Of a DNA stretch of 24,000 bases, positions 2,684 through 20,424 are shown one piece after another. Below the pieces are notes generated by a model. It was not told the DNA's origin. It searched no databases and saw nothing but the letters and a program-made list of their open reading frames with translations. The first letter of the stretch is position 1. The number at the start of each line of letters is the position of its first letter. The translations under genes were made by a program, and so were the position numbers. This DNA is from an uncultured Geobacter sp. GTDB taxonomy: Bacteria > Desulfobacterota > Desulfuromonadia > Geobacterales > DSM-12255. Location of the stretch: assembly GCA_937860145.1 (NCBI GenBank), contig CALMBF010000155.1, positions 123,719-147,718 of the forward strand, read 5' to 3'.

Positions 2684-4024
2684 TTATCGGCCCGGGATCG
2701 CGAACGACATCAGATCTTCCGCCAGGCTGAGGCCCCCACGATAACCGGCATACCCTTTGTTCATCACCACGCGGTTGTTGAGCGGAAAGCTGATCCCCAG
2801 GTGGCGGGCGCCGATGTTGGCGGCCAGTTCCCCTTCGATGGTGCTTCCCAGGATATAGGCCGGGCTAAAGATAGGCGCGTAGCGGTTGCCATCGGTAGCC
2901 GGCCAAAGTCTGGCCAGGTGGGCCGGGATCTGCCCCGCATCGGTTTCGAAGATGATCGTCGGCTGATAGCCGGACTCCAGGCGGTCGTAGCCGTCTATAA
3001 CCGCTGCGTGAAACTGTTCGTCCAGTCCGTCGCTCACCACCGCCAGATCGGTCAGCCAGCCCAGCTCTTCATTGAGAAAGCGGGTTATGGGGAGGGTTGT
3101 GGTGGCATTCCCCACCACCGCGGCATAGAACTGCATGTCTACATCGGTGAACAGGTCGCTCGAGCGTTCGAAGATGCGGTAGTAGAGATCATTTTCCCTG
3201 GCGATGACTGCTTCGGTGGCTTGCGGGTCAAGCCCAAGGGCGGCAGTCACCTCCCGCAGGAAACGGGCGGTGGCCACTGCCCCCACCGGCAGATCCACGA
3301 CTTTGAACGGGGTGGCGAAGCGTTCCTCGAACGTTCTGGCCGGGTCCACGCCATAAGCACGGGATACGACCAGATTGGCCGCTGCCGCCGGTGCACTCCG
3401 CAGGTTGTCCAAGGTTTCGTCCGGGGCGAATAAGGTGTTGACCTCCAGCCCCAGAAGCCCCAGCAGGCGCTTCAGCTCAAGCAGATCACCACGGAAAAAC
3501 GGGTCCTGACCCGGTACCAGTCCCCAGAGGTTGACGAGGCGGGTGTTTATCTCCGCTGCTGGCTTGAGGTAGTGGCGGAAGAGCCCGTCCAGCAGGAGAT
3601 CATACCCCTTGTAGGAGTTCCCCTTGAAACCGCCGGTCTCGATGCCGATCACCGGTATGCCGTTGTCCCGGTGCTCCTGGACCACCGACTGAATGTCATC
3701 GCCGATGATGTCGGTCATGCAGGCCGACACCACCACGTAGAGCTCGCCGTCCATCAGCTCATGGGTGGTGCGGATCTGCTCGCTCAAGCGGTCGCTGCCA
3801 CCGAACACCACCTCATTCTCGACGATGTTGGAGCCGGGGAGCGACGTGCCGCCGCAGTAGCCGGCCCCGTAAAAGCCGCTGCCGGCATAATGGGCCATGT
3901 GCAGGTTGCCGCCGCAGCCGCCGGAGCCATGAATGATCGGGATGGCTTTCGGCAGTGAGGTGATGGCGCTGAGCGCCCCTCCCAGGGCGCAGGTGAAGCG
4001 GGGGTGATCGATAGGGGTACTCAT
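2684..4024 (-). CDS. Nitrogenase-like component 1 beta-type subunit (NifK/NifN-like), paralog beta3, 446 aa
   Basis: Motifs FTCALGGAL, IIHGSGGCGG and SACMTDIIGDD match the three NifK P-cluster cysteine contexts. GGAGGA RBS before the ATG at 4024. Close paralog of 19075..20412. Confidence 0.9.
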   Translation of the reverse strand: MSTPIDHPRFTCALGGALSAITSLPKAIPIIHGSGGCGGNLHMAHYAGSGFYGAGYCGGTSLPGSNIVENEVVFGGSDRLSEQIRTTHELMDGELYVVVSACMTDIIGDDIQSVVQEHRDNGIPVIGIETGGFKGNSYKGYDLLLDGLFRHYLKPAAEINTRLVNLWGLVPGQDPFFRGDLLELKRLLGLLGLEVNTLFAPDETLDNLRSAPAAAANLVVSRAYGVDPARTFEERFATPFKVVDLPVGAVATARFLREVTAALGLDPQATEAVIARENDLYYRIFERSSDLFTDVDMQFYAAVVGNATTTLPITRFLNEELGWLTDLAVVSDGLDEQFHAAVIDGYDRLESGYQPTIIFETDAGQIPAHLARLWPATDGNRYAPIFSPAYILGSTIEGELAANIGARHLGISFPLNNRVVMNKGYAGYRGGLSLAEDLMSFAIPGR

Positions 4025-4051: not shown

Positions 4052-4723
4052 TTAGTGAATTGCGCCAAAATCTGTTTCCAGTAGCACCATTCCCGGTGCA
4101 ATCTCGATAAACGAATCGCCGTCCCACGGGCCGTTGACGACCCGCCGCAACCATGCGTCGCGGCCGCCTATGGTCAGGAATTCCAGCCCCAGCAGCCCAG
4201 CCAGTTCGCGGCCGGTTGCCAGGTGCGCTGTTTCCCTGGGATGGCCGGTATGAACGAAAACAATGCGCCGGTAGGCATCGAACATGGTGGCCATCACCCG
4301 TTTTGCCTTCTGCTCGCCATATTTTTCCCGTACGCGCCGGTATTCGGAAAATACGGTCCGCTCCCCCTCCAGCCAGCCGCCGGAGAGGAAATAAGTCCCC
4401 TTTTCCTCACGGAGGAGTTCTTCATGGGTGTACCGGGACCCAAGGAGGAGCGGGATGCAGTCGTGGGCTCTCGGAATGAACAGCGGTATCCCTGGCGCAG
4501 TCAGTCCTGCCACCGCCCCGCCGCAGAGGCCGAAAGCCAGCACCACCCGGTCTCTACCAGTGGCGCTGGCAAGAACCGCGCGTAACTCCTCCCGCAGTTT
4601 GTCCGGCCAGCGGTGCAGCCCCATGGAGACAAAGTGGAAGATGACCGGGTGTGTCGGCGTTATTGCCAGAAGTTCTTCCTTCATGACGTCGCAGGCAATG
4701 ATGTGGGTAGGTGCGTCAGGCAT
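4052..4723 (-). CDS. DUF1638 domain protein, 223 aa
   Basis: The pattern IIACDVMKEEL...GLH..P..L...FGLCGG...AHDC...LGS...FLSGGW is typical of DUF1638. It lies 27 nt upstream of beta3 on the same strand. Confidence 0.7.
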   Translation of the reverse strand: MPDAPTHIIACDVMKEELLAITPTHPVIFHFVSMGLHRWPDKLREELRAVLASATGRDRVVLAFGLCGGAVAGLTAPGIPLFIPRAHDCIPLLLGSRYTHEELLREEKGTYFLSGGWLEGERTVFSEYRRVREKYGEQKAKRVMATMFDAYRRIVFVHTGHPRETAHLATGRELAGLLGLEFLTIGGRDAWLRRVVNGPWDGDSFIEIAPGMVLLETDFGAIH

Positions 4724-4755: not shown

Positions 4756-4807
4756 CAAAAAAACCGGAGATCTCCTGTGCGCACGTCACGCAGGGACCTC
4801 CGGTTTT
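4756..4807 (-). terminator. Intrinsic terminator after metK
   Basis: On the minus strand: AACCGGAG..(28 nt)..CTCCGGTT followed by TTTTTTT (the A-run at 4756-4763 on the plus strand). Confidence 0.7.
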
Positions 4808-4874
4808 CCGGTTGGCATGATTTCTCGATAAATTGTGTCGATTACACGTACAGCTCTCTGCACATATGGTGACT

Positions 4875-6056
4875 TCAGGCCAGCCTTGCAGCCCGGTCGA
4901 TGCGCTCCCAGGGGAGATCCAGGTCGTTCCTGCCGAAGTGGCCGTAGGCGGCGGTCTGGCGGTAGATGGGGCGGCGCAGGTCGAGCTGCTCGATGATGGC
5001 CGCCGGGCGGAGGTCAAAATTATCCCTGATGATCAGGGCGAGCTGTTCGTCCGACACCTTGCCGGTGCAGAATGAGTCGACGAACACCGCCACCGGCCGG
5101 GCCACGCCGATGGCGTAGGCGATCTGGATCTCAACCCGCGACGCCAGTCCGGCGGCAACCAGGTTCTTGGCCACGTAGCGGGCGGCATAGGCACCGGAGC
5201 GGTCCACCTTCGTGGGATCCTTGCCCGAGAAGGCACCGCCGCCGTGTCGGGCCACGCCGCCGTAGCTGTCGACGATGATCTTGCGGCCGGTGAGGCCGGC
5301 GTCGCCGTGGGGGCCGCCGACGACGAAGCGACCGGTGGGGTTGATGAAGAAACGGGTCTGGTTGTCCAACAGGTTCGCCGGGATCACCGGCTTGACGATA
5401 CGCTCGATGACGTCGCCGCGGATCTGCTCCAGCTCCACGTCGGGAGCGTGCTGGGTGGAGATGACCACCGTGTCGATCCGTGTCGGCGTGCCGTTTTCGA
5501 ACTGCACCGTCACCTGGCTCTTGCCGTCGGGGCGGAGGTAGCCGATTTCCCCTGATTTTCTGGCCGAGGCCAGCTTGCGGGTCAGGCCGTGGGCCAGGTG
5601 GATGCTGGTGGGGAGGTAGGCATCGGTCTCGTCGGTGGCGTAGCCGAAGACCATTCCCTGGTCACCGGCGCCGACGGAATCGAGATAGCCGTCATGGTCA
5701 ATGCCGGAGCGCTGCTCCAGGGCCGAGTTGACCCCTTGGGCGATATCGGGCGACTGCTGGTCAAGGGAAACCAGGACGGCACTGTGTTCGGCATCGAGCC
5801 CCAGTTCCGAGTTTGTGTAACCGACTTCAGTTATTGCGTCCCGGGCGACGCGAACGGCGTTGATCTGGGCAGTGGCCGAGGTCTCGCCGATGACGACGAC
5901 CAGGCCGGTGGTGACGCTGGTTTCGCAGGCGACGCGGGCAAGGGGATCTTTGTCGAGAAAAGCGTCGAGGATCGAGTCGGAGATGAAATCCGCCAGTTTG
6001 TCCGGGTGCCCTTCGGTGACCGATTCTGAAGTGAAGAGGTAGTTATGTGCCGGCAT
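4875..6056 (-). CDS. metK: S-adenosylmethionine synthetase, 393 aa
   Basis: [23 protein letters not shown]..., GAGDQG and the [11 protein letters not shown] motif. Start set at the ATG at 6056 with an AAGGAG RBS; the longer track ORF to 6347 covers the leader region. Confidence 0.95.
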
Positions 6057-6107
6057 TGCTGCTCCTTTCTGGTGATACCTTGAGTCGCATCCATGGTCTA
6101 TTCGCAT

Positions 6108-6165
6108 AAAAAAAGGCCAAGCAGGGTAGTGCATCCCGACTTGGCCTCCAGTGTGTCTGGTGGAA
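6108..6165 (-). promoter_or_regulatory. metK 5' leader: motif copy A (CCAGacacaCTGG-A-GGCCAAG...CTTGGCC-U7), candidate riboswitch or attenuator with an intrinsic terminator
   Basis: Read on the minus strand: cacaacggttccaCCAGacacaCTGGAGGCCAAGtcGGGatgcactaCCCtgCTTGGCCttttttt, ending 52 nt upstream of the metK ATG. Confidence 0.6.
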
Positions 6166-6223
6166 CCGTTGTGAATGTTCGAAGTGTGTCCGATCAATAT
6201 TTTCTGTGACCGTAGCAATTTAA

Positions 6224-6255
6224 ATCTTGACTTGTCAAGATAAAAAATATATATC
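6224..6255 (+). promoter_or_regulatory. Sigma70-like promoter (TTGACT-N15/17-TATATA/TATATC) overlapping the 18-bp palindrome ATCTTGACttGTCAAGAT
   Basis: TTGACT at 6227-6232 and TATATA at 6248-6253. The palindrome at 6224-6241 places TTGAC on both strands between divergent metK and the tautomerase operon. Confidence 0.5.
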
Positions 6256-6286
6256 CTACAAAAAATGTAGTTTATAACTGTCGCTC

Positions 6287-6333
6287 GCTGACCAGAGAAC
6301 TGGAGGCCGGAAAATCTTTTTCCGGCCTTTTTT
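6287..6333 (+). promoter_or_regulatory. Leader motif copy B (GCTGA-CCAGagaaCTGG-A-GGCCGG...CCGGCC-T6) upstream of the tautomerase gene
   Basis: It lies downstream of the predicted promoter and 35 nt upstream of the GTG at 6368. No plus-strand gene upstream needs a terminator here. Confidence 0.6.
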
Positions 6334-6367
6334 CGTTTCACAATCATACATCACAAAGGAGAGAAGC

Positions 6368-6556
6368 GTGCCGATTGTATCCATCGATTTTGGTTCAAAG
6401 CTGTCGAAAGAGCAGAAACAGGCCGTTGCCAAAGGGGTCACGGGGACGATTGCCGCGGCGACGGGCGTTCCGCAAGAGTCGGTCATCGTCATCATCAATG
6501 AGGTGGACAGGGATAATATTGCCAAGGCCGGGGTGCTGTTTTCCGACCGCACATAA
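6368..6556 (+). CDS. 4-oxalocrotonate tautomerase family protein, 62 aa
   Basis: GTG start with an AAGGAGAG RBS. N-terminal Met-Pro (MPIVSI...), the size and the ...KEQKQAVAKGVT... pattern are typical of the 4-OT family. Confidence 0.75.
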   Translation: MPIVSIDFGSKLSKEQKQAVAKGVTGTIAAATGVPQESVIVIINEVDRDNIAKAGVLFSDRT

Positions 6557-6579
6557 TTCAGCTGACAGGAGGATTGGAT

Positions 6580-8082
6580 ATGTTGAAACGAATAGTATCG
6601 GGAATAGTCGGCGTCATTGCCATCGCTGCCTCTGCATTCGCTGCCGACGTGACACTGAAGAGCCGGCTCGATCCGGTGATTGACCGTGCCATCAAGGATG
6701 AGCGGATTGTCGGCACGGTCGTTCTGGTCGCCAGGGATGGAAAACTGATTTACAAAAAGGCGGCCGGACTTGCCGATCGCGAGGCCAGGCGACCCGTGAC
6801 CCTGGATACGCAATTCCGTCTGGCGTCCCTGACCAAACCGATCGTTGCCGCGGCAACGGTTGCCCTGGCCGATGCGGAAATCTTCCGGCTCGACGATCCG
6901 GTGACCAGATGGTATCCGGAGTTCAAGCCGAAACTTGCCGACGGCAGGGAGCCGGATGTGACGGTTTATCAGCTGCTCTCCCACACTGCCGGACTCGGGT
7001 ACGGTTATCTGGAGTCAGGCAAAGGCCCTTACCACCAGGCCGGAGTATCCGACGGCTTCGACCGTTCCGTACCGTCACTGGACGAGAACCTGAAACGCCT
7101 TGCCAAGGCGCCGCTGCTTTATGAGCCGGGCACGGGCTGGTCCTATTCCATTGGCTACGAACTGCTCGGCGGGGTTCTTGAAAACGCCGGCAAGGGTAGA
7201 CTGCCCGCGGTTTTGCAGCGGACGGTGACCAAGCCGCTCGGTCTCAAGGCAACAACATTCACCCCTGCTGACAAGAAGCGCGTCGCTGCCCAGTACGCCT
7301 TTGCCATTCCGCGGCCGAAGCGTCTGGCCGACAGCGACACCATTGACGTCGGCAAGAGTCCGCTCCCTGTTGCTCCCGGCCGTGTCTTCGACCGGAAGGC
7401 CTACCCGTCTGCAGGCGCCGGTCTGGTCGGTACCGCAGAAGACTATCTCAAATTCCTGGAAGCCATCCGTCAGGGCGGAACACCGATTCTGGACAGTGCG
7501 GCGGTCTATTCGTTTACGACCAATTCCCTCGGGCTGATTACTTCACCAGCCCTGGGCAAAGGCTGGGGATACGGCTACGGCGTGGCGGTCCTGAAGAACC
7601 AGGGACTGGCGGAGTCGCTGCACGGTGTGGGGACCTGGCGGCTCAGCGGTGAATACGGCAGCCACTTCTGGGTGGATCCGCAGGCCGGTCTGACCGTGGT
7701 CGTGTTGACCAATACCGCCGGCGCCGGGACCCAGGAGCGCTTCAGTGACGACATCACCCGGGCGGTGTACGGCCCGGAGCGGAAGATAGCTCAGCCGACC
7801 GTCGACGGTATCCCCGTCACCACTGTTGTCGAGGGGAAAGCCTATAAATTCGTCCCCGAGGCAGTCAATGCGGCCAGTTTCAGCATCGCCAACAAGCCGT
7901 CCTGGGCCGCTTTCGACGCTGCCAGCGGCGCCCTGACCGGCACGCCGAAGACAGAAGATGTTGGCACCTACGGCGACATCGTGATCACCGCCACCAACAG
8001 CAGTGGTTCAGCGTCTCTCCCCGGCTTTGCCTTAACCGTCGCACCCGTTCCGCCGCCGGCCGCACCGGTAGCCGCAAAATAG
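6580..8082 (+). CDS. Secreted serine hydrolase (beta-lactamase/class C-like esterase family) with a C-terminal Ig-like domain, 500 aa
   Basis: ATG at 6580, 7 nt after AGGAGG. Signal-peptide-like N-terminus; SxxK motif ASLTKP; the C-terminal roughly 90 aa (KPSWAAFDAASGALTGTP...GTYGDIVITATN) looks like a bacterial Ig/cadherin-like repeat; Pro/Ala tail. Confidence 0.8.
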   Translation: MLKRIVSGIVGVIAIAASAFAADVTLKSRLDPVIDRAIKDERIVGTVVLVARDGKLIYKKAAGLADREARRPVTLDTQFRLASLTKPIVAAATVALADAEIFRLDDPVTRWYPEFKPKLADGREPDVTVYQLLSHTAGLGYGYLESGKGPYHQAGVSDGFDRSVPSLDENLKRLAKAPLLYEPGTGWSYSIGYELLGGVLENAGKGRLPAVLQRTVTKPLGLKATTFTPADKKRVAAQYAFAIPRPKRLADSDTIDVGKSPLPVAPGRVFDRKAYPSAGAGLVGTAEDYLKFLEAIRQGGTPILDSAAVYSFTTNSLGLITSPALGKGWGYGYGVAVLKNQGLAESLHGVGTWRLSGEYGSHFWVDPQAGLTVVVLTNTAGAGTQERFSDDITRAVYGPERKIAQPTVDGIPVTTVVEGKAYKFVPEAVNAASFSIANKPSWAAFDAASGALTGTPKTEDVGTYGDIVITATNSSGSASLPGFALTVAPVPPPAAPVAAK

Positions 8083-8194
8083 CGGGAGCTGGTACGATGA
8101 TCGTTCATCGTTAATCCGGTGGTTGAGCGGTGGCGGAGGAGGCACGTCATGCGAACGGAGTCACCGCTCAACTACCGACTGTGGAGAATCGTTC

Positions 8195-9016
8195 GTGATA
8201 CAACTTGATCTGGACACCCGGCTCCTGGCCGAAAATTATGACGAGCTGAGCGACTACCAGTTCGACAATGGTCGACGTCTACTGGAACTGCTCGATATCC
8301 GGCCCAACTCACGGGTCCTCGACATCGGCTGCGGTACGGGCCGTCTCGGGCTCCTGGTCGCGGAGTCCCTTGGTGACGACGGAAGGCTCATCGGCATTGA
8401 CCCTCTGCCCGAGCGGATCAGGATCGCCTGCAGCAAGAAGGCCCCGGCCAATGCGCGCTTTCAGGTCGGGGTGGGTGAGGACCTCGGTTTTCTCGACTGC
8501 GAGAGCATTGATGTCGTCTTTCTGAGTGCGGTATTCCACTGGATTGCCAACAAGGAGAAAGCGCTGCGGGAAATAGCCCGGGTGCTCAAGCCGGGGGGAC
8601 GGATCGGCCTTACCACGGGAGCCAGGGAGTTGGCCCGGGAAGCAACGTACCGCAAGATTACGGATCGGGTTCTGCTTCGCCTACCGTACAACAAGGTAGT
8701 CAATATCGAGGATTATGTCTTTACCCGGCACGGCGTTACCGCAACCCAGCTGGTACAGCACTTCCTCGGCGCCAAGCTGGCCGTGCAGAGCGTCGACATC
8801 CGCAAGCGATGCAAGTATTTCCGCAGCGGGATGGAGATTGTCGATTTTCTTGAATCGAGCACCTTCGGCAACTATCTGCAGCATGTGCCCGGCAACTTGC
8901 GGGAGGATGCCCGACGTGAGATCATTCTCGAGTTCGATAGCCTGAAGGCCGGTGGCCAGGTCGAGTTTACCGGGTTCACCATCTTTGCCGTGGCGGAGAA
9001 GCCGCTGGTGGATTGA
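8195..9016 (+). CDS. Class I SAM-dependent methyltransferase, paralog 1, 273 aa
   Basis: GTG at 8195 after GGAGAA. Motif I is VLDIGCGTGRLG. It aligns end to end (roughly half the residues identical by eye) with 16353..17171. The upstream part of the track ORF (from 8123) is unsupported. Confidence 0.8.
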   Translation: MIQLDLDTRLLAENYDELSDYQFDNGRRLLELLDIRPNSRVLDIGCGTGRLGLLVAESLGDDGRLIGIDPLPERIRIACSKKAPANARFQVGVGEDLGFLDCESIDVVFLSAVFHWIANKEKALREIARVLKPGGRIGLTTGARELAREATYRKITDRVLLRLPYNKVVNIEDYVFTRHGVTATQLVQHFLGAKLAVQSVDIRKRCKYFRSGMEIVDFLESSTFGNYLQHVPGNLREDARREIILEFDSLKAGGQVEFTGFTIFAVAEKPLVD

Positions 9017-9040
9017 ACCGCCGGCAAGCCGGGAGCTCAA

Positions 9041-10006
9041 GTGGATCATTTATCAGAAAGTATAGTCACGGCAGGTGAAACAGGAGTTGAATCCGTTTTC
9101 ATGGAGGATGAGCCCATCTCGTTACGCAGGGAAAACCGGACATTAGCCTATCTGGCACTTTTTTCCGGCGTTCTCTGCATCAGCGGCTCTGCCCTTTTCG
9201 TCAAGCTGGCCGCTGTCCCCGGCCCGGTGTCGGCCTTTTACCGCTTTCTGTTCACCGGTATTGTCCTGATACCCTGGTGGCTCGGCAGCGGTTCGTCCCG
9301 ACCGGACCGGTCGCAGCTCTGGCTATCTATCGCCGGCGGTCTGTTTCTCGGGCTGGACCTCTTCCTCTGGAACACCAGTATCATGCTCACCACTGCCTCG
9401 ACTGCCACCCTGCTGGGTAACAATGCGCCGATCTGGGTAGGCATCGGTGCGTCGCTTGTCTTCAAAGAGAAGCTGACCGGCCGCTACTGGTCCGGTCTGT
9501 CTCTCGCTCTGCTGGGAATGGTGCTGGTACTCGGGGCAGGAAACTGGCACTTGCCCGCAAGCAGCCGTGGGGACTTCCTGGCGGTTGCCGCCGGGTTTTT
9601 CTACGGCGCCTACCTGCTGACAACACAGAAAGCCCGCTCTATCGCGAATACCCTTACCTTCATGACCTTCTCGGTGGTGACGGGGGGGCTTTTGCTGCTG
9701 ATTCTAACCCTTGTCATGGGACTTCCCCTGACGGGCTACAGCGGCAGTTCCTGGTCCTATCTGGTTGCCTTGGCCCTGATATCACATCTCGGCGGCTGGC
9801 TGGGGGTCAACTATGCCCTGGGTTATCTGAAAGCCTCGGTGGTGTCGGTGTCGCTACTGTCTCAGGTCGTGGTCACGGTAGTTCTGGCCATGCCTCTTTT
9901 GGGTGAGCGGCTGAGCCTGCCGCAGCTGATCGGTGGTGGGCTGGTTCTCTCGGGTATCTACCTGGTCAACAGCCGGTGGTATAAAATTACAGAAAGGAGA
10001 ATCTAA
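9041..10006 (+). CDS. EamA/DMT-family transporter
   Basis: About ten hydrophobic segments with typical EamA repeat organisation. The start is uncertain (GTG at 9041 or ATG at 9101). Confidence 0.75.
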   Translation: MDHLSESIVTAGETGVESVFMEDEPISLRRENRTLAYLALFSGVLCISGSALFVKLAAVPGPVSAFYRFLFTGIVLIPWWLGSGSSRPDRSQLWLSIAGGLFLGLDLFLWNTSIMLTTASTATLLGNNAPIWVGIGASLVFKEKLTGRYWSGLSLALLGMVLVLGAGNWHLPASSRGDFLAVAAGFFYGAYLLTTQKARSIANTLTFMTFSVVTGGLLLLILTLVMGLPLTGYSGSSWSYLVALALISHLGGWLGVNYALGYLKASVVSVSLLSQVVVTVVLAMPLLGERLSLPQLIGGGLVLSGIYLVNSRWYKITERRI

Positions 10007-10545
10007 TGACCATGCTTGAACTGATAAGAAAACGCCGCAGTATTCGCACCTACACCGATGAGTCGATTGACCGGCAAACTCTTGAACTGCTGGTTGAAAC
10101 CCTGCTTAGAGCACCGTCGTCACGCAATAACCGCCCCTGGGAATTCATTGTGGTTGATGATCGGGACCTTCTGCAAAAGCTTTCGCTATCCAAGGCCCAC
10201 GGCTCTACCTTTCTAAAGGGCTCGCCTCTCGGAATCGTGGTCTGCGCCGACAGCACGAAATCCGATGTCTGGGTGGAGGACTGCTCTATCGCCGCAATCC
10301 TGGTGCAGATGACCGCCGAGTCTCTTGGATTGGGGAGTTGCTGGATTCAGATCCGCCAGCGTCCCCATGATGCTGACAGTTCAGCCGAGGCCTACGTTCA
10401 GCAGTTGCTAGGACTTCCGGAACATGTCAGGGTGGAATCTATCATTAGTATCGGCCATCCCCAGGAAAGACGGCCACCCTTGCGTGCCGACGAACTGCAG
10501 TATGACAAGGTGAAGCACAATCGTTACGACGAGCCGTTCAGTTGA
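10006..10545 (+). CDS. Nitroreductase-family flavoprotein, 179 aa
   Basis: RRSIRTYTDE...APSSRNNRPWEFIVV motif. The ATG overlaps the EamA stop (taATGa), suggesting translational coupling. Confidence 0.85.
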   Translation: MTMLELIRKRRSIRTYTDESIDRQTLELLVETLLRAPSSRNNRPWEFIVVDDRDLLQKLSLSKAHGSTFLKGSPLGIVVCADSTKSDVWVEDCSIAAILVQMTAESLGLGSCWIQIRQRPHDADSSAEAYVQQLLGLPEHVRVESIISIGHPQERRPPLRADELQYDKVKHNRYDEPFS

Positions 10546-10585
10546 TCATCTCCTAAAGGTAGTGTTTCGGGCAAACAATTAATAA

Positions 10586-10615
10586 TTGACGGGCAAACTG
10601 TTTTCGTGGTAATAA
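10586..10615 (+). promoter_or_regulatory. Candidate sigma70 promoter for the nifS-selD operon
   Basis: TTGACG-N17/18-GTAATA/TAATAA in an AT-rich gap, flanked by the direct repeat CGGGCAAAC at 10568-10576 and 10590-10598. Confidence 0.4.
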
Positions 10616-10658
10616 ATCTATAAACACGATAGATAATATAGTTACAAGGAGGGGCGCA

Positions 10659-12857
10659 GTGCATCCAGTGTATCTTGACTACAATGCAACTACTCCGGTT
10701 GACCCCCTGGTGGTTGATGAGCTGCTCCCCTGGTTGCAGGAAGGGTTCGGCAATCCATCCAGTAATCACCCGTACGGCCAGCGTGCCAAACATGCAGTGG
10801 AGCAGGCTCGTTCGCGGGTGGCGTCACTGCTTGGCGCGCATCCGGCGGAGATTATATTTACCAGCGGTGGTACCGAGGCAAACAATCAGGCGCTGATCGG
10901 GGTTGCCCTGGCCAACTGCGAGCGGGGTCGGCATATCATCACGTCGTCCATTGAACACCCGGCAGTCCTGAATCCGCTCCACTGGCTGGAGGGGCAGGGG
11001 TTCAACATCACCTATCTCCCCGTGGACAGCTCCGGACGGGTAGATCCGGAGACGTTGCGCCAGGCCATCACCTGCGAGACAATTCTCGTCAGCGTGATGC
11101 ATGCCAACAACGAGGTGGGGACTATCCAGCCGCTGGCCGAGATCGGCGCCATCGCCCGGGAACACGGCATTCTGCTGCACACCGATGCCGCCCAGTCGGT
11201 GGGGAAGATCCCGACGAGGGTGGATGAACTGGGGGTGGACCTGCTGACCATTGCCGGCCACAAGTTTTATGCCCCCAAGGGGATCGGCGCCCTCTATGTG
11301 CGCACGGGGGTGAAGATTGATCCCTACCTGCATGGCGCCGGACACGAAGGGGGCCGTCGGGCGGGGACCGAAAACGTCCCCTATATCGCCGCACTGGGTA
11401 AGGCGGCAGAACTGGCGGGCCAGCGGTTGGCCAGCGAAGGGGAGCGCATTCGTGAGCTGCGGGACCGCTTCCATGCCCGGCTGAACGAACTGGTTGACGG
11501 GGTCCTGCTGAATGGCCACCCCACCGAGCGCCTCCCCAACACTCTCAACATCAGCTTCAGCGACGTGGTCGGGGCTGATCTGCTGTCCCGTATTCCGGAG
11601 ATGGCCGCTTCCACCGGTTCGGCCTGTCATGACGGCAGCGGCGAGCTGTCCGGCGTGCTCAAGGCCATGGGGGTGCCACGGGAGCAGGGTTTCGGCGCCA
11701 TCCGCTTCAGCCTCGGCCGGCTTACCACCGCCGAGGAGCTGGAACGGGCAGCAGAGCTTGTTGCGACCAGGGTCAGGGAAATTCGCGCCATCCGGGGTGG
11801 TGTTTCCCATAATCACGTTCAGACCGGGCTCTCCGCCCTGGCTTCCTGCGCCGGTTGAGCGGCCAAGATAAGTCCTCAGGACCTGGCTCAAGTTTTGAGT
11901 CAGCTACCAAGCATTACCGACCCGAATGTACTCATCGGCACCAAAACCGCCGATGATGCCGCCGTTTACCGTGTGAACGATGATCTGGCCATCGTGCAGA
12001 CGGTGGACTACTTTACTCCGGTGGTGGACGACCCCTATCTGTTCGGCCAGATTACCGCTGCCAACTCCCTGTCCGATATCTATGCCATGGGGGCTACGCC
12101 TCTCTTTGCTCTGAACATAGCCGGGTTTCCATCCGATACGCTTCCCTTGGATGTTCTGGCCAGGATTCTCCAGGGGGGTGCTGACAAGGCGGCGGAAGCA
12201 GGCATCAGCATCATCGGCGGCCATACCATCAAGGATGCGGAGCCGAAATACGGCATGGCGGTCACCGCGGTGATCCATCCCGACCAGGTGATCAGTAACG
12301 CCGGGGCCAAACCGGGTGACCGGCTGATCCTCACCAAGCCGCTGGGAATCGGGATTATTACGACTGCCATGAAAAGCGGCAAGGTTACAGAAAAGACCGT
12401 TGCCGAAGTTGTCGCTGTCATGGCGAGTCTGAACAGGAGTGCCGCAGAGGCGATGGTTGTGGTCGGAGCCCATGCCTGCACCGACGTGACCGGTTTCGGA
12501 TTCCTCGGCCATCTTTCCGAAATGGTCCGTGGAAGCGGCGTCGGCGCGGTGATCAGCGTGTCGAGGGTGCCGGTGCTGGAAGAGGCCTGGAGTCTGGTGC
12601 GTGAGGGGATTGCTCCGGGCGGCAGCCGACGCAACCTGGAATTTTTGCGCGACCGGCTCACGGTAGAAACGGGTGTCAGCGAAGAGGAGCTGCTTGTCCT
12701 GGCCGATGCCCAGACCTCTGGCGGGTTGCTGATAGCATTGCCGGCAGACGACGTTGACCGGTTAGAGACGGAACTTGCCGGACGGGGTGTGACAGATGTT
12801 GCCGAAATCGGCGAGATTGTGGCCGATCCCGACAGCCGGATCACCCTGAGACCCTAG
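10659..12857 (+). CDS. selD: NifS-like cysteine desulfurase/selenocysteine lyase fused to selenophosphate synthetase; in-frame UGA (Sec) at 11856-11858; 732 aa
   Basis: GTG after AAGGAGG. The N-terminal domain has the PLP Lys context GHKFYAPKG and the active-site motif GSAC. Reading through the TGA gives ...SCAG-U-AAKISPQDLAQVL..., matching the SelD G-x-G-C/U-x-x-K-I-S-P active site. The rest is SelD-like (DDAAVY, VDYFTP, TDVTGFG). Confidence 0.8.
11859..11899 (+). other. Candidate SECIS-like stem-loop immediately 3' of the UGA
   Basis: GCCAagataaGTCCtcaGGACcTGGC at 11862-11887, followed by CTCAAgttTTGAG at 11887-11899. Confidence 0.4.
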
Positions 12858-12868
12858 GGATATCAGAC

Positions 12869-13645
12869 ATGGCAACCGGCTTGCAACTGGGCACCCTGTT
12901 CATGCTCGGCATGTCCGGAGGGTTTTTGTCCGGACTCCTGGGCATTGGCGGCGGCATTGTCATGCTGCCGCTCCTCATATCGCTGCCACAGTTAACGGGT
13001 TTTTCCATCGGTCTCCGTCCGGCTGTCGGGATTACCATGCTCCAGAGCCTGAGTGGATCCCTGTCGGGCATGCTGATCCATCGCAGGCACGATGTCTTCG
13101 ACGTTCCCCTTGCCCTCACGGTAGGGGTGTGCGCCGCTGCCGGATCAATGGGGGGAGCTCTCTTTTCCAGCCTGGTGAGTGAGCGGTGCATGGCGATCCT
13201 TTTTGCCGTGATGGCGTTAACAAGCCTGCTGCTTCTGCTCTTACCCGAATCCGGGGAGTTGCCATCAACTGATAGCACATGCCCGAAGCGCTTTCCTGCC
13301 GCATCGCTGCTGGGGGGTGGTGTCGGTTTTTGTGCCGGGATCATCGGCCAGGGGGGCGCATTCATCATCCTTCCCCTCTTGATTCATCTGCTGAAGGTAC
13401 CGGTGCGGACGGCAATCGGTACGACCGTCGCAGTCTCGTTTTTATCCGCAGCTGCCGGATTCATCGGTAAATGGAGCACCGGACAGGTCCCCCTGCTCTG
13501 GGGAGTCGCCGTGGCATCCGGAGCGCTGCTGGGGGGGCAGCTGGGGGGTATGGTCAGCCACCGGTTATCGACAATCACCCTGCGTCGAATCCTGTTCCTG
13601 GTGGTTGCGGTCAGCATGCTGCGTATATTTGCCCACGTCCTTTAG
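12869..13645 (+). CDS. TauE/SafE (DUF81) family anion exporter-like membrane protein, 258 aa
   Basis: Gly-rich TM1 (GGFLSGLLGIGGGIVMLPLL) and an internal repeat (GIIGQGGAFIILPLL) are typical of the TauE family. Confidence 0.75.
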   Translation: MATGLQLGTLFMLGMSGGFLSGLLGIGGGIVMLPLLISLPQLTGFSIGLRPAVGITMLQSLSGSLSGMLIHRRHDVFDVPLALTVGVCAAAGSMGGALFSSLVSERCMAILFAVMALTSLLLLLLPESGELPSTDSTCPKRFPAASLLGGGVGFCAGIIGQGGAFIILPLLIHLLKVPVRTAIGTTVAVSFLSAAAGFIGKWSTGQVPLLWGVAVASGALLGGQLGGMVSHRLSTITLRRILFLVVAVSMLRIFAHVL

Positions 13646-13699
13646 AAACCTTGCGGATTGCTATTGTCAGCGTAACTGAGACGTTAGCGGAGGTACTAC

Positions 13700-14287
13700 A
13701 TGCTTCTGTGGCACATCTTCATTCTCTTTACCCGGGTATCCCTGTTCTCCTGGGGAGGCGGACCTGCCTCCCTGGCGCTGATGCAACGGGAAACCACCAC
13801 TGCCCTCTGGAAGCCACCTGGTAGTGCCTCAACGTCTCCCTGGGTAACACCCCTGGAATTTTCCGATGCCGTGGCGGTGGGGAATGCACTTCCAGGACCG
13901 ATTGCACCCCAGGTTTCCGCCTATATTGGATATAAGATGGCCGGAGTGCCGGGTGCCGTCGCTGCTGCGGCCGGGACGGTACTGCCGACGACGATACTGA
14001 TGCTGTTCATGGTGGCCTGTTTTTTTCGCATCAAGGAGAGTCTGCTGGTCCAGTCCATGCTCCGGGCCGTCCGCCCGGTGGTGGTGGGACTGCTGCTCTG
14101 GACCGCCTATGACATGGCGATAACGGTTTTCGGGGTCAAACGGCTCGGGCTTGTGCAGTCGTTCTCCCTGGGATGGGATAAGCTGCTCATTGTGGCAGTG
14201 TCGTTTGCGGTACTGACCCTGACGGAAATCAATCCGGCCCTGGTTGTTCTGGTAGCGGCCGTAGCGGGCGGCGTGGTGTACCGTTGA
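13700..14287 (+). CDS. Chromate-transporter (CHR) family half-size protein, 195 aa
   Basis: FTRVSLFSWGGGPASLALMQRE and ...GNALPGPIAPQV... resemble short-chain ChrA proteins. Only one half-size gene is present. Confidence 0.7.
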   Translation: MLLWHIFILFTRVSLFSWGGGPASLALMQRETTTALWKPPGSASTSPWVTPLEFSDAVAVGNALPGPIAPQVSAYIGYKMAGVPGAVAAAAGTVLPTTILMLFMVACFFRIKESLLVQSMLRAVRPVVVGLLLWTAYDMAITVFGVKRLGLVQSFSLGWDKLLIVAVSFAVLTLTEINPALVVLVAAVAGGVVYR

Positions 14288-14352
14288 GGAACGTCAGTCG
14301 ACAGATGCGCAGCCGGGACAAAAGAAAAGCTTGGTGAGCAGGAGGGAGTTCT

Positions 14353-15816
14353 ATGGGCAATCGTAACCTGTTACGTGATCCGATCTGGCGAGGCGATGAA
14401 CTGGGAAAGGCACTTCCCGATTCGCTCCATGCCGTCTCCGTGGCGCTGCCGCATTGGCAGGACGTGGTTGGTTATGAGGAGAAGCGGCCCGAGGTGGTCA
14501 ATCGATTGCAATGCGGCTACCCCCGCTTCGTCATTCACCGCCTGGTGCAGGATCTGGCGCGGTTTATCGCCGGTGATCGCCCCTGCCTGCCGTTCCCTTC
14601 GCAGCACACGGCGCAGCAGTGCGTGGCTTTCATTCATCGCCAGAGCGGCGTCGAAGCTCAGGTGGTCGAGCGGGACGGGCAGTATGGTGTTGCCACGACC
14701 GACAGCGGTTACGACAGCCTCAAGGCTTTCTGGCAGCATACCGGCCTGATCGTCTCCACCCGCCGGGCCCAGTCGATATTGAGCGGTATCTCGCGGGTAC
14801 AATCTGATGATCGGGAAGTGCGGGATTCTCTTCGGCGACAGCTGGCCGGGTTGTACGACTGTTCTCCCGATGACGTATTCCTGCAGCCAACCGGCATGGC
14901 GGCCATGTTTGCCGCCCTGCGGGCGGTCATGCGGCGTACACCGGGCAGGCCGACGGTGCAGATCGGCTTCCCTTATGTGGATACGCTCAAGCTGCAGGAG
15001 AAATTCGGCCACGGCGCAACCCTGCTCCATGACCTCAACCATTGTACTGAAAACCTGCGTGCCCTTCTGCAACAAGGGGCTCTAGCCGGATGCTTCAGTG
15101 AGATTCCCGGTAACCCCTTGCTCGGATCTGCCGATCTGCGCGAGATCACCCCGATCCTGCGGGAGCACGGCGTGCCGCTGGTGGCCGACGACGTTGTTGC
15201 CACACCCCTGAACGTGGACCTCGGTTCCCATGCCGACCTGATCGCCACCAGCCTGACCAAATACATTTTCGGCAGGGGGGACGTCATGGGTGGCGCCCTG
15301 ATCTGCAACCCCCGCTCTCCCTATCACATCGAGCTTAGGGCCATTGCAACATCGCTGCACGAGGAGCTTCTCTGGCTTGATGATGCCGTGGTGCTGGAAG
15401 AGCAGATCGGCAGCTTTCCGGAGCGGATGCGGGTTCACAACCGTAACGGCCTGATCATTGCCGAACGGCTTCGCTCCCATCCTGCAGTTGAACAGGTCTG
15501 GTTTCCGAAATGGTCGTTCGGCGACGCCTACGAGGCGGTGCGCCGACCCGATGGCGGGTGGGGTTCCCTGGTCACCTTTCTGCCAAAGAACGCCGAGACC
15601 GCGTCACCCCGTATCTATGACAATCTTGAAGTTTGCAAGGGCCCGAGTCTGGGAACCAGCTTTACCCTGGCCTGTCCCTTTACCCTGCTGGCCCATTACA
15701 CTGAACTGGAGTGGGCTGAGGCCTGCGGGGTGCCGCGGTATCTGATCCGGCTCTCCGTGGGGCTCGAAGATCCGGAAGAACTCTGGGGCCGGATTGTCCG
15801 GGCGCTGGAAGCATAA
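14353..15816 (+). CDS. Cys/Met-metabolism PLP-dependent enzyme (cystathionine gamma-synthase-like, long Str2-type form), 487 aa
   Basis: The PLP-lysine context SLTKYIFGRGDVMGG, plus an N-terminal extension of roughly 100 aa with HAVSVALPHWQDVVGYEE. AGGAGG RBS. Confidence 0.75.
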   Translation: MGNRNLLRDPIWRGDELGKALPDSLHAVSVALPHWQDVVGYEEKRPEVVNRLQCGYPRFVIHRLVQDLARFIAGDRPCLPFPSQHTAQQCVAFIHRQSGVEAQVVERDGQYGVATTDSGYDSLKAFWQHTGLIVSTRRAQSILSGISRVQSDDREVRDSLRRQLAGLYDCSPDDVFLQPTGMAAMFAALRAVMRRTPGRPTVQIGFPYVDTLKLQEKFGHGATLLHDLNHCTENLRALLQQGALAGCFSEIPGNPLLGSADLREITPILREHGVPLVADDVVATPLNVDLGSHADLIATSLTKYIFGRGDVMGGALICNPRSPYHIELRAIATSLHEELLWLDDAVVLEEQIGSFPERMRVHNRNGLIIAERLRSHPAVEQVWFPKWSFGDAYEAVRRPDGGWGSLVTFLPKNAETASPRIYDNLEVCKGPSLGTSFTLACPFTLLAHYTELEWAEACGVPRYLIRLSVGLEDPEELWGRIVRALEA

Positions 15817-15905: not shown

Positions 15906-15955
15906 CGATATAAGTAATAGACATTATCGTTTATTTTGCCGAACAAAATATTTCA

Positions 15956-16000
15956 GCTGACCAGATAACTGGAGGCCAGGATTTTTCCTGGCCTTTTTTT
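15956..16000 (+). promoter_or_regulatory. Leader motif copy C (GCTGA-CCAGataaCTGG-A-GGCCAGG...CCTGGCC-T7)
   Basis: It lies about 45 nt downstream of the predicted transcription start and about 115 nt upstream of the Nfu start, in a leader-terminator arrangement. Confidence 0.65.
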
Positions 16001-16114
16001 GTTCATGACAGCTGCTGGAGACTGTAGAACTTAGTTCATGATTGAAGTTGTACATCAACAGGAGCTATACAACTTCAAGTGAATAAACGCATTGCCGATA
16101 GGGAGGATGAATAC

Positions 16115-16352: not shown

Positions 16353-17171
16353 ATGATATCCCTTGCGCTTGATAACAGTAAACTCGCCAAAACCTACGAC
16401 GAAATCAGCGATTCCCAGTACGAGTCCGGCAAGAAGCTGCTTGCCGAACTCAAAGTCAAACCGGGTGAGACCGTGCTCGACATCGGCTGCGGCACCGGTC
16501 GGCTCGGACTCTACCTGCTCGATATTATCGGTCCGACCGGCCGTTTCATCGGCATCGATCCGCTGCCGGAGCGTATCAGTATTGCCAATGACAATAATGT
16601 TCACCCTAACGCCGAATTCCGTACCGGTGTGGCTGAAGACCTCTCGTTTCTGGGGAACAACAGCGTCGACCTGGTCTACCTGAGCGCCGTGTTCCACTGG
16701 GTACCCGATAAGCAGAAGGCATTGCAGGAGATCAGCCGGGTGTTGAAGCCGGGTGGCAGGATCGGTTTGACCACCAACGCCAAGGAGTTGGTTAAGGCGA
16801 CCACCCTCCGTTCCGTGACCACGGAGGTGTTATCTCGGGTTCCCTATCGCGGCCAAGTGGATGCCGAGGCTTTTGCCCCGACCCGCCACGGGGTGACAGC
16901 CACCCAGCTGGTTGAGCTCTTTCTCGATGCGGGATTCAGGGTTGCGGACGTCCGTGTCCTGGCCATCGAGCGTTTGTACCATACCGGACGTGATATCGTC
17001 GACTTTGCCGAAGCAAGTACCTTTGGCAATTACCTGAACCACGTGCCGGCAGATTTGCGGGATAAAGCCCGTTTTGACCTGGAGAGCGCCTTTGAGATAC
17101 TGCGTGGTGACGAGGGGATTCCGTTTCAGCTATATACACTTTTTGCCATTGCCGAAAAGATCGGCGCCTGA
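16353..17171 (+). CDS. Class I SAM-dependent methyltransferase, paralog 2, 272 aa
   Basis: Motif I is VLDIGCGTGRLG. Collinear with 8195..9016 (shared blocks LSAVFHW, VLKPGGRIGLTT, RHGVTATQLV, STFGNYL.HVP). Confidence 0.85.
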   Translation: MISLALDNSKLAKTYDEISDSQYESGKKLLAELKVKPGETVLDIGCGTGRLGLYLLDIIGPTGRFIGIDPLPERISIANDNNVHPNAEFRTGVAEDLSFLGNNSVDLVYLSAVFHWVPDKQKALQEISRVLKPGGRIGLTTNAKELVKATTLRSVTTEVLSRVPYRGQVDAEAFAPTRHGVTATQLVELFLDAGFRVADVRVLAIERLYHTGRDIVDFAEASTFGNYLNHVPADLRDKARFDLESAFEILRGDEGIPFQLYTLFAIAEKIGA

Positions 17172-17248: not shown

Positions 17249-17314
17249 GCTGACCGGCAAAGCCGGAGGTGCCTGATGCGCATGTGCGCATGGCCCTCCG
17301 GCTTTTCTTTTTTT
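17249..17314 (+). promoter_or_regulatory. Motif copy D (GCTGA-CCGGCaaaGCCGG-AGG) merged with a strong intrinsic terminator, between the methyltransferase and alpha1
   Basis: AAGCCGGAGG (17260-17269) pairs with CCTCCGGCTT (17295-17304), with an inner ATGCGCAtgTGCGCAT, followed by TTCTTTTTTT. The alpha1 RBS follows 20 nt later. Confidence 0.65.
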
Positions 17315-17345
17315 GCAACCGACAATAGAGGAGAGAGGTGTACGT

Positions 17346-18875: not shown

Positions 18876-18909
18876 ATATACCTGATGACTATCAATTCTT
18901 CCGTAAATT

Positions 18910-19013
18910 CCTTCTCCCTCAGGGAGAAGGTGGCCTCAGGCCGGATGAGGGTGGTAACAGTGCCATTATGCACCATTTCCCCCTCACCCTAGCCCTCTCC
19001 CTCAGGGAGAGGG
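18910..19013. repeat. REP-like element: inverted pair of CCYTCTCCC-tca-GGGAGARGG hairpins in the alpha1-beta1 gap
   Basis: Hairpins at 18910-18930 and 18993-19013, plus GGCCtcaGGCC at 18932-18942. The two halves are approximately reverse-complementary. Confidence 0.65.
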
Positions 19014-19074
19014 GACTCTGTATAAGCTGTAGTGGCAGGTACGATTAAATTAATTACCAAGGAGTAACATCCAT

Positions 19075-20412: not shown

Positions 20413-20424
20413 AGGAGAGCATGT

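Follow-up and report, generated by a model that had tools for sequence, protein, structure and literature searches.

A conserved hairpin fused to an intrinsic terminator in the leaders of metK and other sulfur-related genes of a Geobacter relative is a probable ON-type antitermination element

Introduction

Why should an operon carry an intrinsic terminator between its promoter and its first gene, and what would let RNA polymerase pass it? The question is raised by a stretch of DNA of 24,000 nucleotides from an uncultured Geobacter sp. (contig CALMBF010000155.1; the whole stretch is called the window below), in which the S-adenosylmethionine synthetase gene metK and a divergent operon starting with a tautomerase gene are each preceded by a short hairpin that runs straight into a GC-rich stem-loop and a U-run. 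A previous reading of this DNA from its letters alone (the sequence-only reading) had proposed that the hairpin and its terminator form a conserved leader element with alternative pairings, and had suspected a signal related to S-adenosylmethionine (SAM), S-adenosylhomocysteine (SAH) or methionine. Here we followed up this proposal in the window, in related loci and across public genomes, all evidence in the study being computational. We find the element quite likely to be a factor-stabilised antiterminator hairpin fused to an intrinsic terminator, that is, an attenuator of the ON type, which precedes genes of sulfur acquisition and of methionine and cysteine (Met/Cys) metabolism. Little is understood of how Geobacter, Desulfuromonas, many Clostridia, Dehalococcoidia and other anaerobes regulate their sulfur assimilation, and the element would define a regulon across these groups.

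Results and Discussion

Five hairpin-terminators in the window

A regular-expression sweep combined with a covariance model found five copies of the hairpin with its terminator in the window (A to E). Copies A to D were as the sequence-only reading had described them, whereas its count of four was one short, since it had missed copy E.

6167..6108, minus strand: copy A, in the metK leader, GGUUCCA-CCAG-ACACA-CUGG-AGG-CCAAG...CUUGGCC-U7, with the hairpin at 6167..6143, the terminator stem at 6147..6115 and the U-run at 6114..6108
6287..6333, plus strand: copy B, with the hairpin GCU-GA-CCAG-AGAA-CUGG-A-GGC at 6287..6307
15956..16003, plus strand: copy C, with the hairpin GCU-GA-CCAG-AUAA-CUGG-A-GGC at 15956..15976 and the terminator at 15971..15996, followed by a U-run
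17249..17315, plus strand: copy D, with the hairpin GCU-GA-CCGG(C)-AAA-(G)CCGG-A-GGU at 17249..17270
4816..4757, minus strand: copy E, with the hairpin GCC-AA-CCGG-AAAA-CCGG-A-GGU at 4816..4796

An intrinsic terminator, that is, a GC-rich stem-loop directly followed by a U-run, is present at all five copies. The terminator of copy B (6304..6328, 13 pairs) has the arms CCGGAAAA..UUUUCCGGCC after AGG, and its U-run (UUUUUU) reaches 6333. At copy D the 5' arm GCCGGAGG (17262..17269) pairs with CCUCCGGC (17295..17302) ahead of a U-run ending at 17315, so that the entire 3' half of the hairpin lies inside the terminator, and the terminator of copy E (CCGGAGGUCCCUG...CAGGAGAUCUCCGG) extends to 4764, with its U-run at 4763..4757. 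Copy A, which ends 52 nt 5' of the metK ATG (6056), keeps the inner helix CCAG/CUGG with the loop ACACA and has a divergent outer helix (GG-UU-CC-A / A-GG-CC, not GCUGA). It also had the lowest covariance-model score of the five, the scores being 35.2 bits for C, 34.7 for B, 27.3 for E, 20.1 for D and 18.2 for A (E-values from 1e-8 to 2e-3), with the next-best match in the window at 12.2 bits. The 17-base core common to B and C occurs exactly twice, compared with 0.08 occurrences expected from shuffled sequence. Since all five copies belonged to the training alignment of the covariance model, the real test of the motif is its conservation outside the window.

Conservation outside the window

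The best named matches of the MetK protein encoded in the window are in Desulfuromonadaceae, Oryzomonas and Geobacter, which places it in the Desulfuromonadales/Geobacterales. The motif was found in its canonical form in the metK leaders of all three relatives examined (L001, L003 and L004; 84-88% MetK identity), for example as GCUGACCAGAAAAACUGGAGG-CCGGGGG... in L003, and the arrangement of copy E recurs in L001 at 11243..11269. Further copies in these metK-relative loci precede beta-lactamase-like genes, URO-D/DUF1638/nitrogenase-like genes and Fer4/ABC/NifH-like genes. In total, the motif was recovered from at least about 180 loci with more than 200 distinct copies, in Desulfuromonadales, Bacillota, Chloroflexota, Nitrospirota and metagenomes.

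When one genome per species was scanned with the pattern GCTGACCAGAAAA(N)CTGGAGG, at least 120 matches were returned, and 110 of the 122 among the matches listed run directly into a GC-rich hairpin and a T-run by a strict criterion, most of the others having a weaker one. The 80 records listed include about 45 relatives of Geobacter and Desulfuromonas, 25 Bacillota, four Chloroflexota and single members of Nitrospirota, Syntrophorhabdus and Auribacterota; among the matches listed, the Bacillota are represented by Clostridium, Pseudobutyrivibrio, Tissierellales, Syntrophomonas, Pelotomaculum, Heliobacterium and Thermincola. No conservation was seen 5' of position -5 of the hairpin in the genome-scan matches (numbering as given below). 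As a control, a shorter pattern was applied to viral contigs, where a terminator followed in only 12 of the 120 matches listed; linkage to a terminator is therefore a property of the real element and not of the pattern. The earlier view of the motif as a conserved leader element that regulates in cis, its core being fixed while the terminator is free in sequence and compensates, is supported.

The same data bear on the possibility that the element is not regulatory at all, being an ordinary terminator family or a dispersed repeat (mobile, or of the repetitive extragenic palindromic type). Several copies (D, E and many in Bacillota) are intergenic, where a plain terminator would be expected. 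We nevertheless regard this as highly improbable: the terminator stems differ wholly in sequence whereas the 21 nt upstream of them are fixed across phyla, the motif is specifically associated with sulfur and Met/Cys genes, and no flanking repeats or transposase genes were seen. Moreover, copies A, B and C lie in 5' leaders right after promoters, and a constitutive terminator there would silence the operon.

About ten contigs of the IMG/VR database that are classed as viral (L018, L021, L064, L081, L090, L092, L101, L109, L110) also carry copies of hairpin and terminator that look genuine.

Structure and covariation of the hairpin

Counting positions from the first base of the inner helix (P1), the hairpin of 21-22 nt can be written as R(-5) C(-4) Y(-3) N(-2) A(-1) [CYRG] loop [CYRG] A18 G19 G20 Y21. 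An outer helix of 3 bp (P1b) is formed by the pairs -5:+21, -4:G20 and -3:G19, and is separated from P1 by a 2x1 internal loop in which N(-2) and A(-1) face A18. The apical loop of 4-5 nt is A-rich and otherwise free (AAAA, ACAA, AUAA, ACACA and others).

Both helices are supported by covariation. The two central pairs of the 4-bp P1 covary (C-G 82, U-A 11 and U-G 5 for one; A-U 83 and G-C 15 for the other), which is not an artefact of the search, because a search anchored on the flanks alone found all three free inner pairs formed in 226/236 matches linked to a terminator compared to 59/300 of the others. For P1b, copies in the neighbourhood of known motifs, in which positions -5 and +21 had not been selected by the pattern, had G-C 23 times, A-U 18 times, G-U three times and a non-pair once. 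An independent metagenome sample was drawn with the pattern GACCAGAAAACTGGAGG, leaving -5 to -3 and +21 free; in the 63 terminator-linked matches the outer pair forms in 58 (GC 39, AU 7, UG 7, GU 3, CG 2) and C stands at -4 in 55, whereas the 51 matches without a terminator, mostly chance matches in coding regions, show no outer-pair pattern. Copies on viral contigs add U-A outer pairs, and the set of such copies includes U-G variants as well. Four positions do not vary: A-1 and A18, which are unpaired, and G19 and G20, which are paired. Lengthening of P1b by a pair -6:+22 is not general (45/97 unpaired), and some subfamilies do extend the helix beyond -5:+21, e.g., UUGACU/AGGUCAA.

Competition between the hairpin and the terminator

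The 3' strand of the hairpin, (G)AGGY, is at the same time the base of the 5' arm of the terminator, where its partner is the (C)CCU just 5' of the U-run. The terminator always begins at A18, in many copies already at G17 and in D and E at C14, and in every case CCU or CCUC closes its 3' arm directly before the U-run. Because the AGGY nucleotides are common to both structures, the hairpin and the complete terminator are mutually exclusive. In minimum-energy folds of 152 distinct leaders, A18 to Y21 pair with the 3' arm of the terminator in 146-148 and P1b is kept in three, whereas P1b forms in 150 of the 152 when the hairpin is folded in isolation; the median folding energy is -7.2 kcal/mol for the hairpin and -23.6 kcal/mol for the terminator. 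The five window copies fold likewise, with the terminator displacing P1b. The sequence-only reading was thus right to expect mutually exclusive pairings, but not in the pairing it named: a central CUGG that pairs with a downstream CCAG or CCGG is not general, because the terminator arms vary freely, and what actually switches is the partner of AGGY, which is either the upstream RCY, in P1b, or the CCU in the 3' arm of the terminator.

No third conserved element that could serve as a separate anti-terminator was found in the leaders. The layout is therefore not the sequence of aptamer, anti-terminator and terminator of an OFF switch, but that of an antiterminator, and we infer from this anatomy that the element would be ON when bound. 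By default, the much stronger terminator would displace the weak P1b and transcription would stop. A trans-acting factor that clamps the hairpin would prevent the bottom 4-5 pairs of the terminator next to the U-tract from forming, and RNA polymerase would then read into the genes downstream.

Genes controlled by the element

Among the matches listed, the first downstream genes (n = 144) encode NMT1/THI5-type binding proteins (14), MetK (13), rhodanese (10), Cys/Met pyridoxal-phosphate enzymes such as MetY (9), NifH-like proteins (8), Rrf2 (6), ATPases of ATP-binding cassette (ABC) systems (6), porin O/P (6), radical SAM proteins (6) and Nitro_FeMo-Co proteins (5). Clustering of all open reading frames (ORFs) of at least 70 aa from about 120 loci adds ABC permeases, radical SAM proteins, CysK-type PALP proteins (25 loci), nitrogenase-like proteins (19) and URO-D methyltransferases (12). 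The controlled genes are thus a sulfur-acquisition and Met/Cys regulon, including sulfonate-type ABC transporters and nitrogenase-like sulfur-salvage enzymes. This census bears out the expectation that the element controls metK together with methionine and sulfur genes, and induction under sulfur shortage would fit an element of the ON type.

A radical-SAM protein of about 420-435 aa was a frequent target of the hairpin (26 loci; e.g., L136 3763..5070 and L186 1201..2445). It is often followed by a conserved ORF of 163 aa without a Pfam match (12 loci; e.g., L186 2458..2949).

Comparison with known RNA families

No Rfam 15 family was found at gathering score anywhere in the window. In E-value mode, three short stretches (including 5950-6450 and 15935-16010) gave only low-scoring alignments of the terminators to terminators of assorted small RNAs (sRNAs), and no match to SAM-SAH, SAM-I/S-box, SAM-II, SAM-V, SAM-VI, SAH, HMP-PP or PyrR was obtained at E<=10 in the stretches scanned. 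A scan of 18 Bacillota loci returned only cobalamin riboswitches. The absence of a SAM-I match agrees with the sequence-only reading that the leader is not an S-box, and the Rfam search as a whole gave no clean match to a defined family. Nor was a description of the motif found in the full-text literature searched, including discovery papers of the Breaker laboratory and comparative-genomics papers on methionine regulation; since most subscription journals lay outside this search, an earlier description is possible. As far as could be determined, the RNA family is apparently unannotated, whereas this kind of mechanism is already known.

A SAM-, SAH- or methionine-sensing OFF riboswitch of the SAM/SAH kind, whose ligand would favour the terminator, was the relation first suspected. 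One copy does control metK, and the S-box regulons of Firmicutes also join metK with sulfur genes. However, the SAM/SAH family (RF01727) gave no covariance-model match at gathering score or at E<=10, and neither did any other SAM or SAH class. The string of copy A that had been taken as a hint (ACAACGGUUCC) is absent from the orthologous metK leaders, ACAACGG not being conserved there. RNAs of the SAM/SAH class are H-type pseudoknots in which the 3' tail or the Shine-Dalgarno region pairs with the hairpin loop. Like them, our element is small and stands upstream of metK, but it has no such pseudoknot: the loops vary, no conserved complementary segment lies 3' of them, sequence 5' of -5 is unconserved and a terminator of free sequence follows the AGG. 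Its expression platform is a transcription terminator instead of Shine-Dalgarno sequestration, the taxa differ, and the motif precedes dozens of genes besides metK. Above all, the conserved hairpin itself competes with the terminator and no third element is present, which gives ON logic in place of the OFF logic that a SAM sensor would imply. Of all readings considered, we find this one the least probable.

Closest in architecture is the HMP-PP (thiS motif) riboswitch, a validated system in which the aptamer is embedded in the terminator and works with ON logic within a narrow kinetic window (PMC6478431). Both are very small elements that overlap an intrinsic terminator, with mutually exclusive folds, ON logic and G-U pairs into the U-run. 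On the other hand, sequence and fold differ, our element is a separate upstream hairpin that shares only 4-8 nt with the terminator, and the tip of the terminator is not conserved. The regulon consists of sulfur and Met/Cys genes rather than thiamin genes, no thiamin family being among the top 25 downstream-gene families and no HMP-PP Rfam match being found, and the partner suspected here is a protein.

This precedent nevertheless gives some weight to a miniature riboswitch of the ON type, in which the 22-nt hairpin, perhaps together with the first pairs of the terminator, would bind a metabolite or ion that reports sulfur shortage. A ligand seated at the 2x1 internal loop might lock P1b and block completion of the terminator, as in HMP-PP, and candidates would be O-acetylserine, O-acetylhomoserine or some other precursor that builds up as sulfide runs short. 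The generic feature of a riboswitch, a conserved and covarying structured RNA in the 5' leaders of a coherent gene set, is present. The core hardly varies among Desulfuromonadales, Bacillota, Chloroflexota, Nitrospirota and other groups, both helices covary while A-1, A18, G19 and G20 are fixed, the regulon is metabolically coherent, and an aptamer that overlaps the terminator base, with U-run G-U pairs and ON logic, has the validated precedent just cited. However, a selective pocket would have very little to build on with seven base pairs and three loop nucleotides, the apical loop itself varies, and the data name no ligand. We consider such a riboswitch rather unlikely, although a serious alternative, and return to it below where the gene neighbourhoods and the hairpin arrays bear on it.

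Small DUF2292/YezD/OscA proteins upstream of the hairpin

What moves a metabolite ligand out of first place is a gene of the DUF2292/YezD/OscA family that lies directly upstream of the hairpin in many loci. The fetched loci contain 63 DUF2292 ORFs (Pfam E about 1e-17, down to 3e-18), and related small ORFs adjoin the motif in Geobacter relatives, Bacillota, Chloroflexota, Nitrospirota, Auribacterota and metagenomes. A hairpin follows on the same strand within 200 nt 3' of the DUF2292 stop in 49 of the 63 cases, and lies within 300 nt upstream in two; the median gap from stop to hairpin is 21 nt under the stricter terminator criterion. Three of five ORFs tested against PF10055 scored 63-65 bits and a fourth 44.7 (cut-off 22), while the small ORF of a Tissierellales subtype reached 20.4 bits, just under the cut-off. 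Against the NCBIfam equivalog for OscA, the upstream small ORFs scored 33-42 bits with a cut-off of 85, indicating that they are relatives and not orthologues; homologues are named 'YezD family protein' in public sources. The DUF2292 ORFs are basic (median isoelectric point 9.2) and nearly devoid of cysteine.

Since most loci had been chosen by the RNA motif, a second set was chosen by the protein alone. In these, the hairpin lies directly 3' of YezD in three of five locus types (L364/L365, L366-368 and L369/L370) and one gene later in L371/L372, and is absent in L363. One YezD gene is often accompanied by several hairpins in the same cluster (e.g., L136 and L314), and YezD stands directly upstream of the metK hairpin in several relatives (L141, L147 and L193), though not in the window.

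In Pseudomonas, oscA heads the oscA-sbp transcription unit for sulfate uptake; sulfur starvation and chromate induce it, chromate resistance requires it, and its product is described as a small protein of unknown function (PMC2996968, PMC3596284). Our loci resemble this unit in that a PF10055 gene comes first in a sulfur-uptake unit. A small regulator-like gene immediately 5' of a terminator, with further copies served in trans, is also the arrangement of the HutP, PyrR and BglG systems: each of the genes hutP, pyrR and bglG directly precedes a terminator that its product controls. The likeness of the YezD-hairpin layout to hutP and pyrR favours protein-mediated antitermination over a metabolite riboswitch. 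The hairpin further resembles the ribonucleic antiterminator (RAT) of BglG/LicT, which is likewise a short imperfect hairpin with an internal loop overlapping the 5' arm of a terminator. In contrast, DUF2292 has no CAT/PRD, HutP or PyrR domain, and no CAT-PRD protein or phosphotransferase-system sugar genes were found in Pfam scans of the window, the downstream genes and the locus clusters. In sequence, the hairpin shows no relation to RAT elements, to UAG repeats or to the binding loop of PyrR, with no Rfam PyrR match obtained, and PyrR promotes termination whereas our element should prevent it.

On the strength of this gene order we tentatively propose YezD/DUF2292 as the factor that stabilises the antiterminator hairpin, an assignment which we would put at slightly under an even chance. 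The factor that clamps the hairpin would then most likely be this small basic protein of about 50-60 aa, presumably in a state that depends on sulfur starvation, so that RNA polymerase would read into the sulfur-acquisition and Met/Cys genes; from its own locus the protein would also serve other copies in trans, among them all five of the window. We infer both the binding by YezD and the identity of the signal, and to our reading of public sources the proposed role of DUF2292, like the RNA family, is apparently unannotated.

Several observations weigh against this proposal. There is no DUF2292 ORF in the 24-kb window or in the 21-kb loci of its closest relatives, so the factor would have to act in trans here, and YezD is directly upstream of just 41 of 201 hairpins (about 20%), the remaining copies, about 80%, lacking an adjacent YezD gene as a riboswitch would allow. 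The AlphaFold model of YezD is mediocre (mean predicted local distance difference test 72; an N-terminal helix, then short strands) and has no Foldseek match in the PDB below E = 0.7, with no solved relative. The RNA core is near-invariant across phyla while YezD subfamilies share about 30-40% identity, and a metabolite aptamer would show the same. YezD could also be merely the conserved first gene of sulfur-starvation operons with a regulated intercistronic terminator behind it. Finally, choosing loci by the motif inflates the share of YezD genes with a motif, but it leaves the 49:2 polarity unexplained, and so does a pure riboswitch model.

The search for another candidate was negative: the ORF clustering over about 120 loci (minimum length 70 aa) gave no other conserved regulator gene, but only transport genes, enzyme genes and Rrf2, and no RNA-binding domain.

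In Tissierellales-type loci (L166, L127, L135, L157, L161, L179 and L196) the order is a cobalamin riboswitch (RF00174), its terminator, a YezD-like ORF of 48 aa, the hairpin-terminator and a gene for a secreted DUF4430 protein. The cobalamin riboswitches lie 300-550 nt upstream of the motif; in L166 (1687..2260) the hairpin starts 25 nt past the stop of the 48-aa ORF. The YezD-like subtype has the sequence ...YGEIRIIVQD..PIRVEEIKKSIKL, and in L127 two YezD paralogues flank the hairpin. These loci link the element to corrinoid biology as well as to sulfur.

Terminator-less and tandem hairpins

A terminator is present in about 90% of copies, and tandem forms without one also exist. In Clostridium arbusti and a Clostridium metagenome-assembled genome, 5-7 complete hairpins, each with its own P1b, follow one another with no terminator after them.

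6216..6029 of L198, minus strand: tandem array
3319..3114 of L202, minus strand: tandem array
663..816 of L133, plus strand: tandem array

The Clostridium arrays lie in the 5' untranslated region (UTR) of a gene for a protein of 153-154 aa with an extremely high Met and Cys content (MQTKIMGSNMNKMMGKGMMMNNGMGMMDMPM...CCDCMMSMMECGCNAVMCMNNTPVCCC). Such a protein could serve to store sulfur, to bind metal or as the precursor of a peptide, and it would sensibly be regulated in the opposite direction to the scavenging genes. Two tandem hairpins without a clear terminator also occur after YezD and before porin O/P and sulfate-binding protein genes (L366-368 at about 2700..2800, L313 and L357). The terminator-less forms show that the hairpin, including P1b, is a functional unit in its own right. 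One small hairpin used singly or in arrays recalls the iron-responsive element/iron regulatory protein and CsrA-type systems, to which there is no sequence relation and which act on translation or stability and not on termination. Arrays of several sites are more typical of protein-binding sites than of an aptamer for one ligand, and a single leader with 5-7 hairpins does not look like known riboswitch arrangements, even though the occurrence of the hairpin in more than one expression context, with a terminator and in terminator-less tandems, would also suit a riboswitch.

In loci of the L366-368 type, the outer helix of the first hairpin is extended to 7-8 bp, and a segment ACUCCU located between the two could base-pair with the Shine-Dalgarno sequence farther 3', making translational control at the double hairpins possible. 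By-eye inspection of the terminator-less L138/L171 and L366-368 found no convincing expression platform that sequesters a Shine-Dalgarno sequence.

The terminator-less forms also bear on whether the hairpin is a site for some other trans-acting factor (a protein, an sRNA or the ribosome through GGAGG) or an element of processing or stability, with YezD a co-located member of the regulon. The GAGG/GGAGG core resembles a Shine-Dalgarno sequence, antitermination is impossible in 5' UTR versions without a terminator, and no RNA-binding fold could be assigned to YezD. Against this, the ORF clustering yielded no other conserved candidate gene and no conserved complementary sequence points to an sRNA. 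The strict adjacency of a terminator in about 90% of copies, together with covariation that keeps the competing helix, argues for antitermination, and we judge another factor or a processing role improbable.

Implications of the antitermination model

Two outcomes of equal novelty come into question, and we think it probable that one or the other applies. Either DUF2292/YezD/OscA is a new family of small RNA-binding antiterminators that recognise a 22-nt hairpin and with it constitute a phylum-spanning, hitherto unrecognised master switch of sulfur acquisition in anaerobes, or the hairpin is among the smallest natural riboswitch aptamers known, sensing a sulfur-starvation metabolite. The regulon would span MetK, MetY, CysK, sulfate and sulfonate uptake, rhodanese, and corrinoid/radical-SAM and nitrogenase-like sulfur-salvage enzymes. 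The former outcome would give a testable molecular function to DUF2292/YezD/OscA, a family with thousands of members and a phenotype in sulfur starvation and chromate exposure but no mechanism. In addition, the element marks clusters of nitrogenase-like and methyltransferase genes as sulfur-starvation genes, which helps to assign their substrates, and at 22 nt plus a terminator of free sequence it is a compact, portable module that is attractive for engineering.

Genes and promoters around the window copies

The genes next to the five copies are as follows.

4875..6056, minus strand: metK, S-adenosylmethionine synthetase with three S-AdoMet_synt domains, controlled by copy A
6368..15816, plus strand: operon of ten genes behind copy B, the first encoding a tautomerase of 62 aa
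16079..16336, plus strand: NifU-like gene behind copy C
16353..17171, plus strand: methyltransferase gene behind copy C
17313..23213, plus strand: four nitrogenase-like genes behind copy D, which has a methyltransferase gene on its other side
4723..4052, minus strand: DUF1638 gene, copy E lying between the metK stop (4875) and this gene with the next
4024..2684, minus strand: nitrogenase-like gene

In order, the operon behind copy B encodes the tautomerase, a beta-lactamase-like protein, a methyltransferase, an EamA protein, a nitroreductase, a class-V aminotransferase (cysteine desulfurase-like), a SelD-like AIR-synthase-related protein, TauE, a protein of the chromate-transporter family and a Cys_Met_Meta_PP protein.

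Five nitrogenase component-1-like genes are thus found within 24 kb (2684..4024 and 17313..23213), comparable to those at 13923..17014 of L001. They are accompanied by DUF1638, methyltransferases, the SelD-like AIRS protein, the class-V aminotransferase, TauE and the chromate-transporter family protein, and the whole nitrogenase-like/methyltransferase gene set of the window sits 3' of hairpin-terminators. PMC10418091 discusses methyltransferase gene clusters with MarHDK-like genes, which this gene set resembles.

The divergent promoter region between metK and the tautomerase gene contains a perfect inverted repeat, ATCTTGAC-TT-GTCAAGAT, at 6226..6243. It holds overlapping -35-like hexamers, TTGACA and TTGACT, one per strand, and a near-identical promoter block is present in the relative L128. 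The repeat could be the core of a bidirectional promoter or an operator for a transcription factor.

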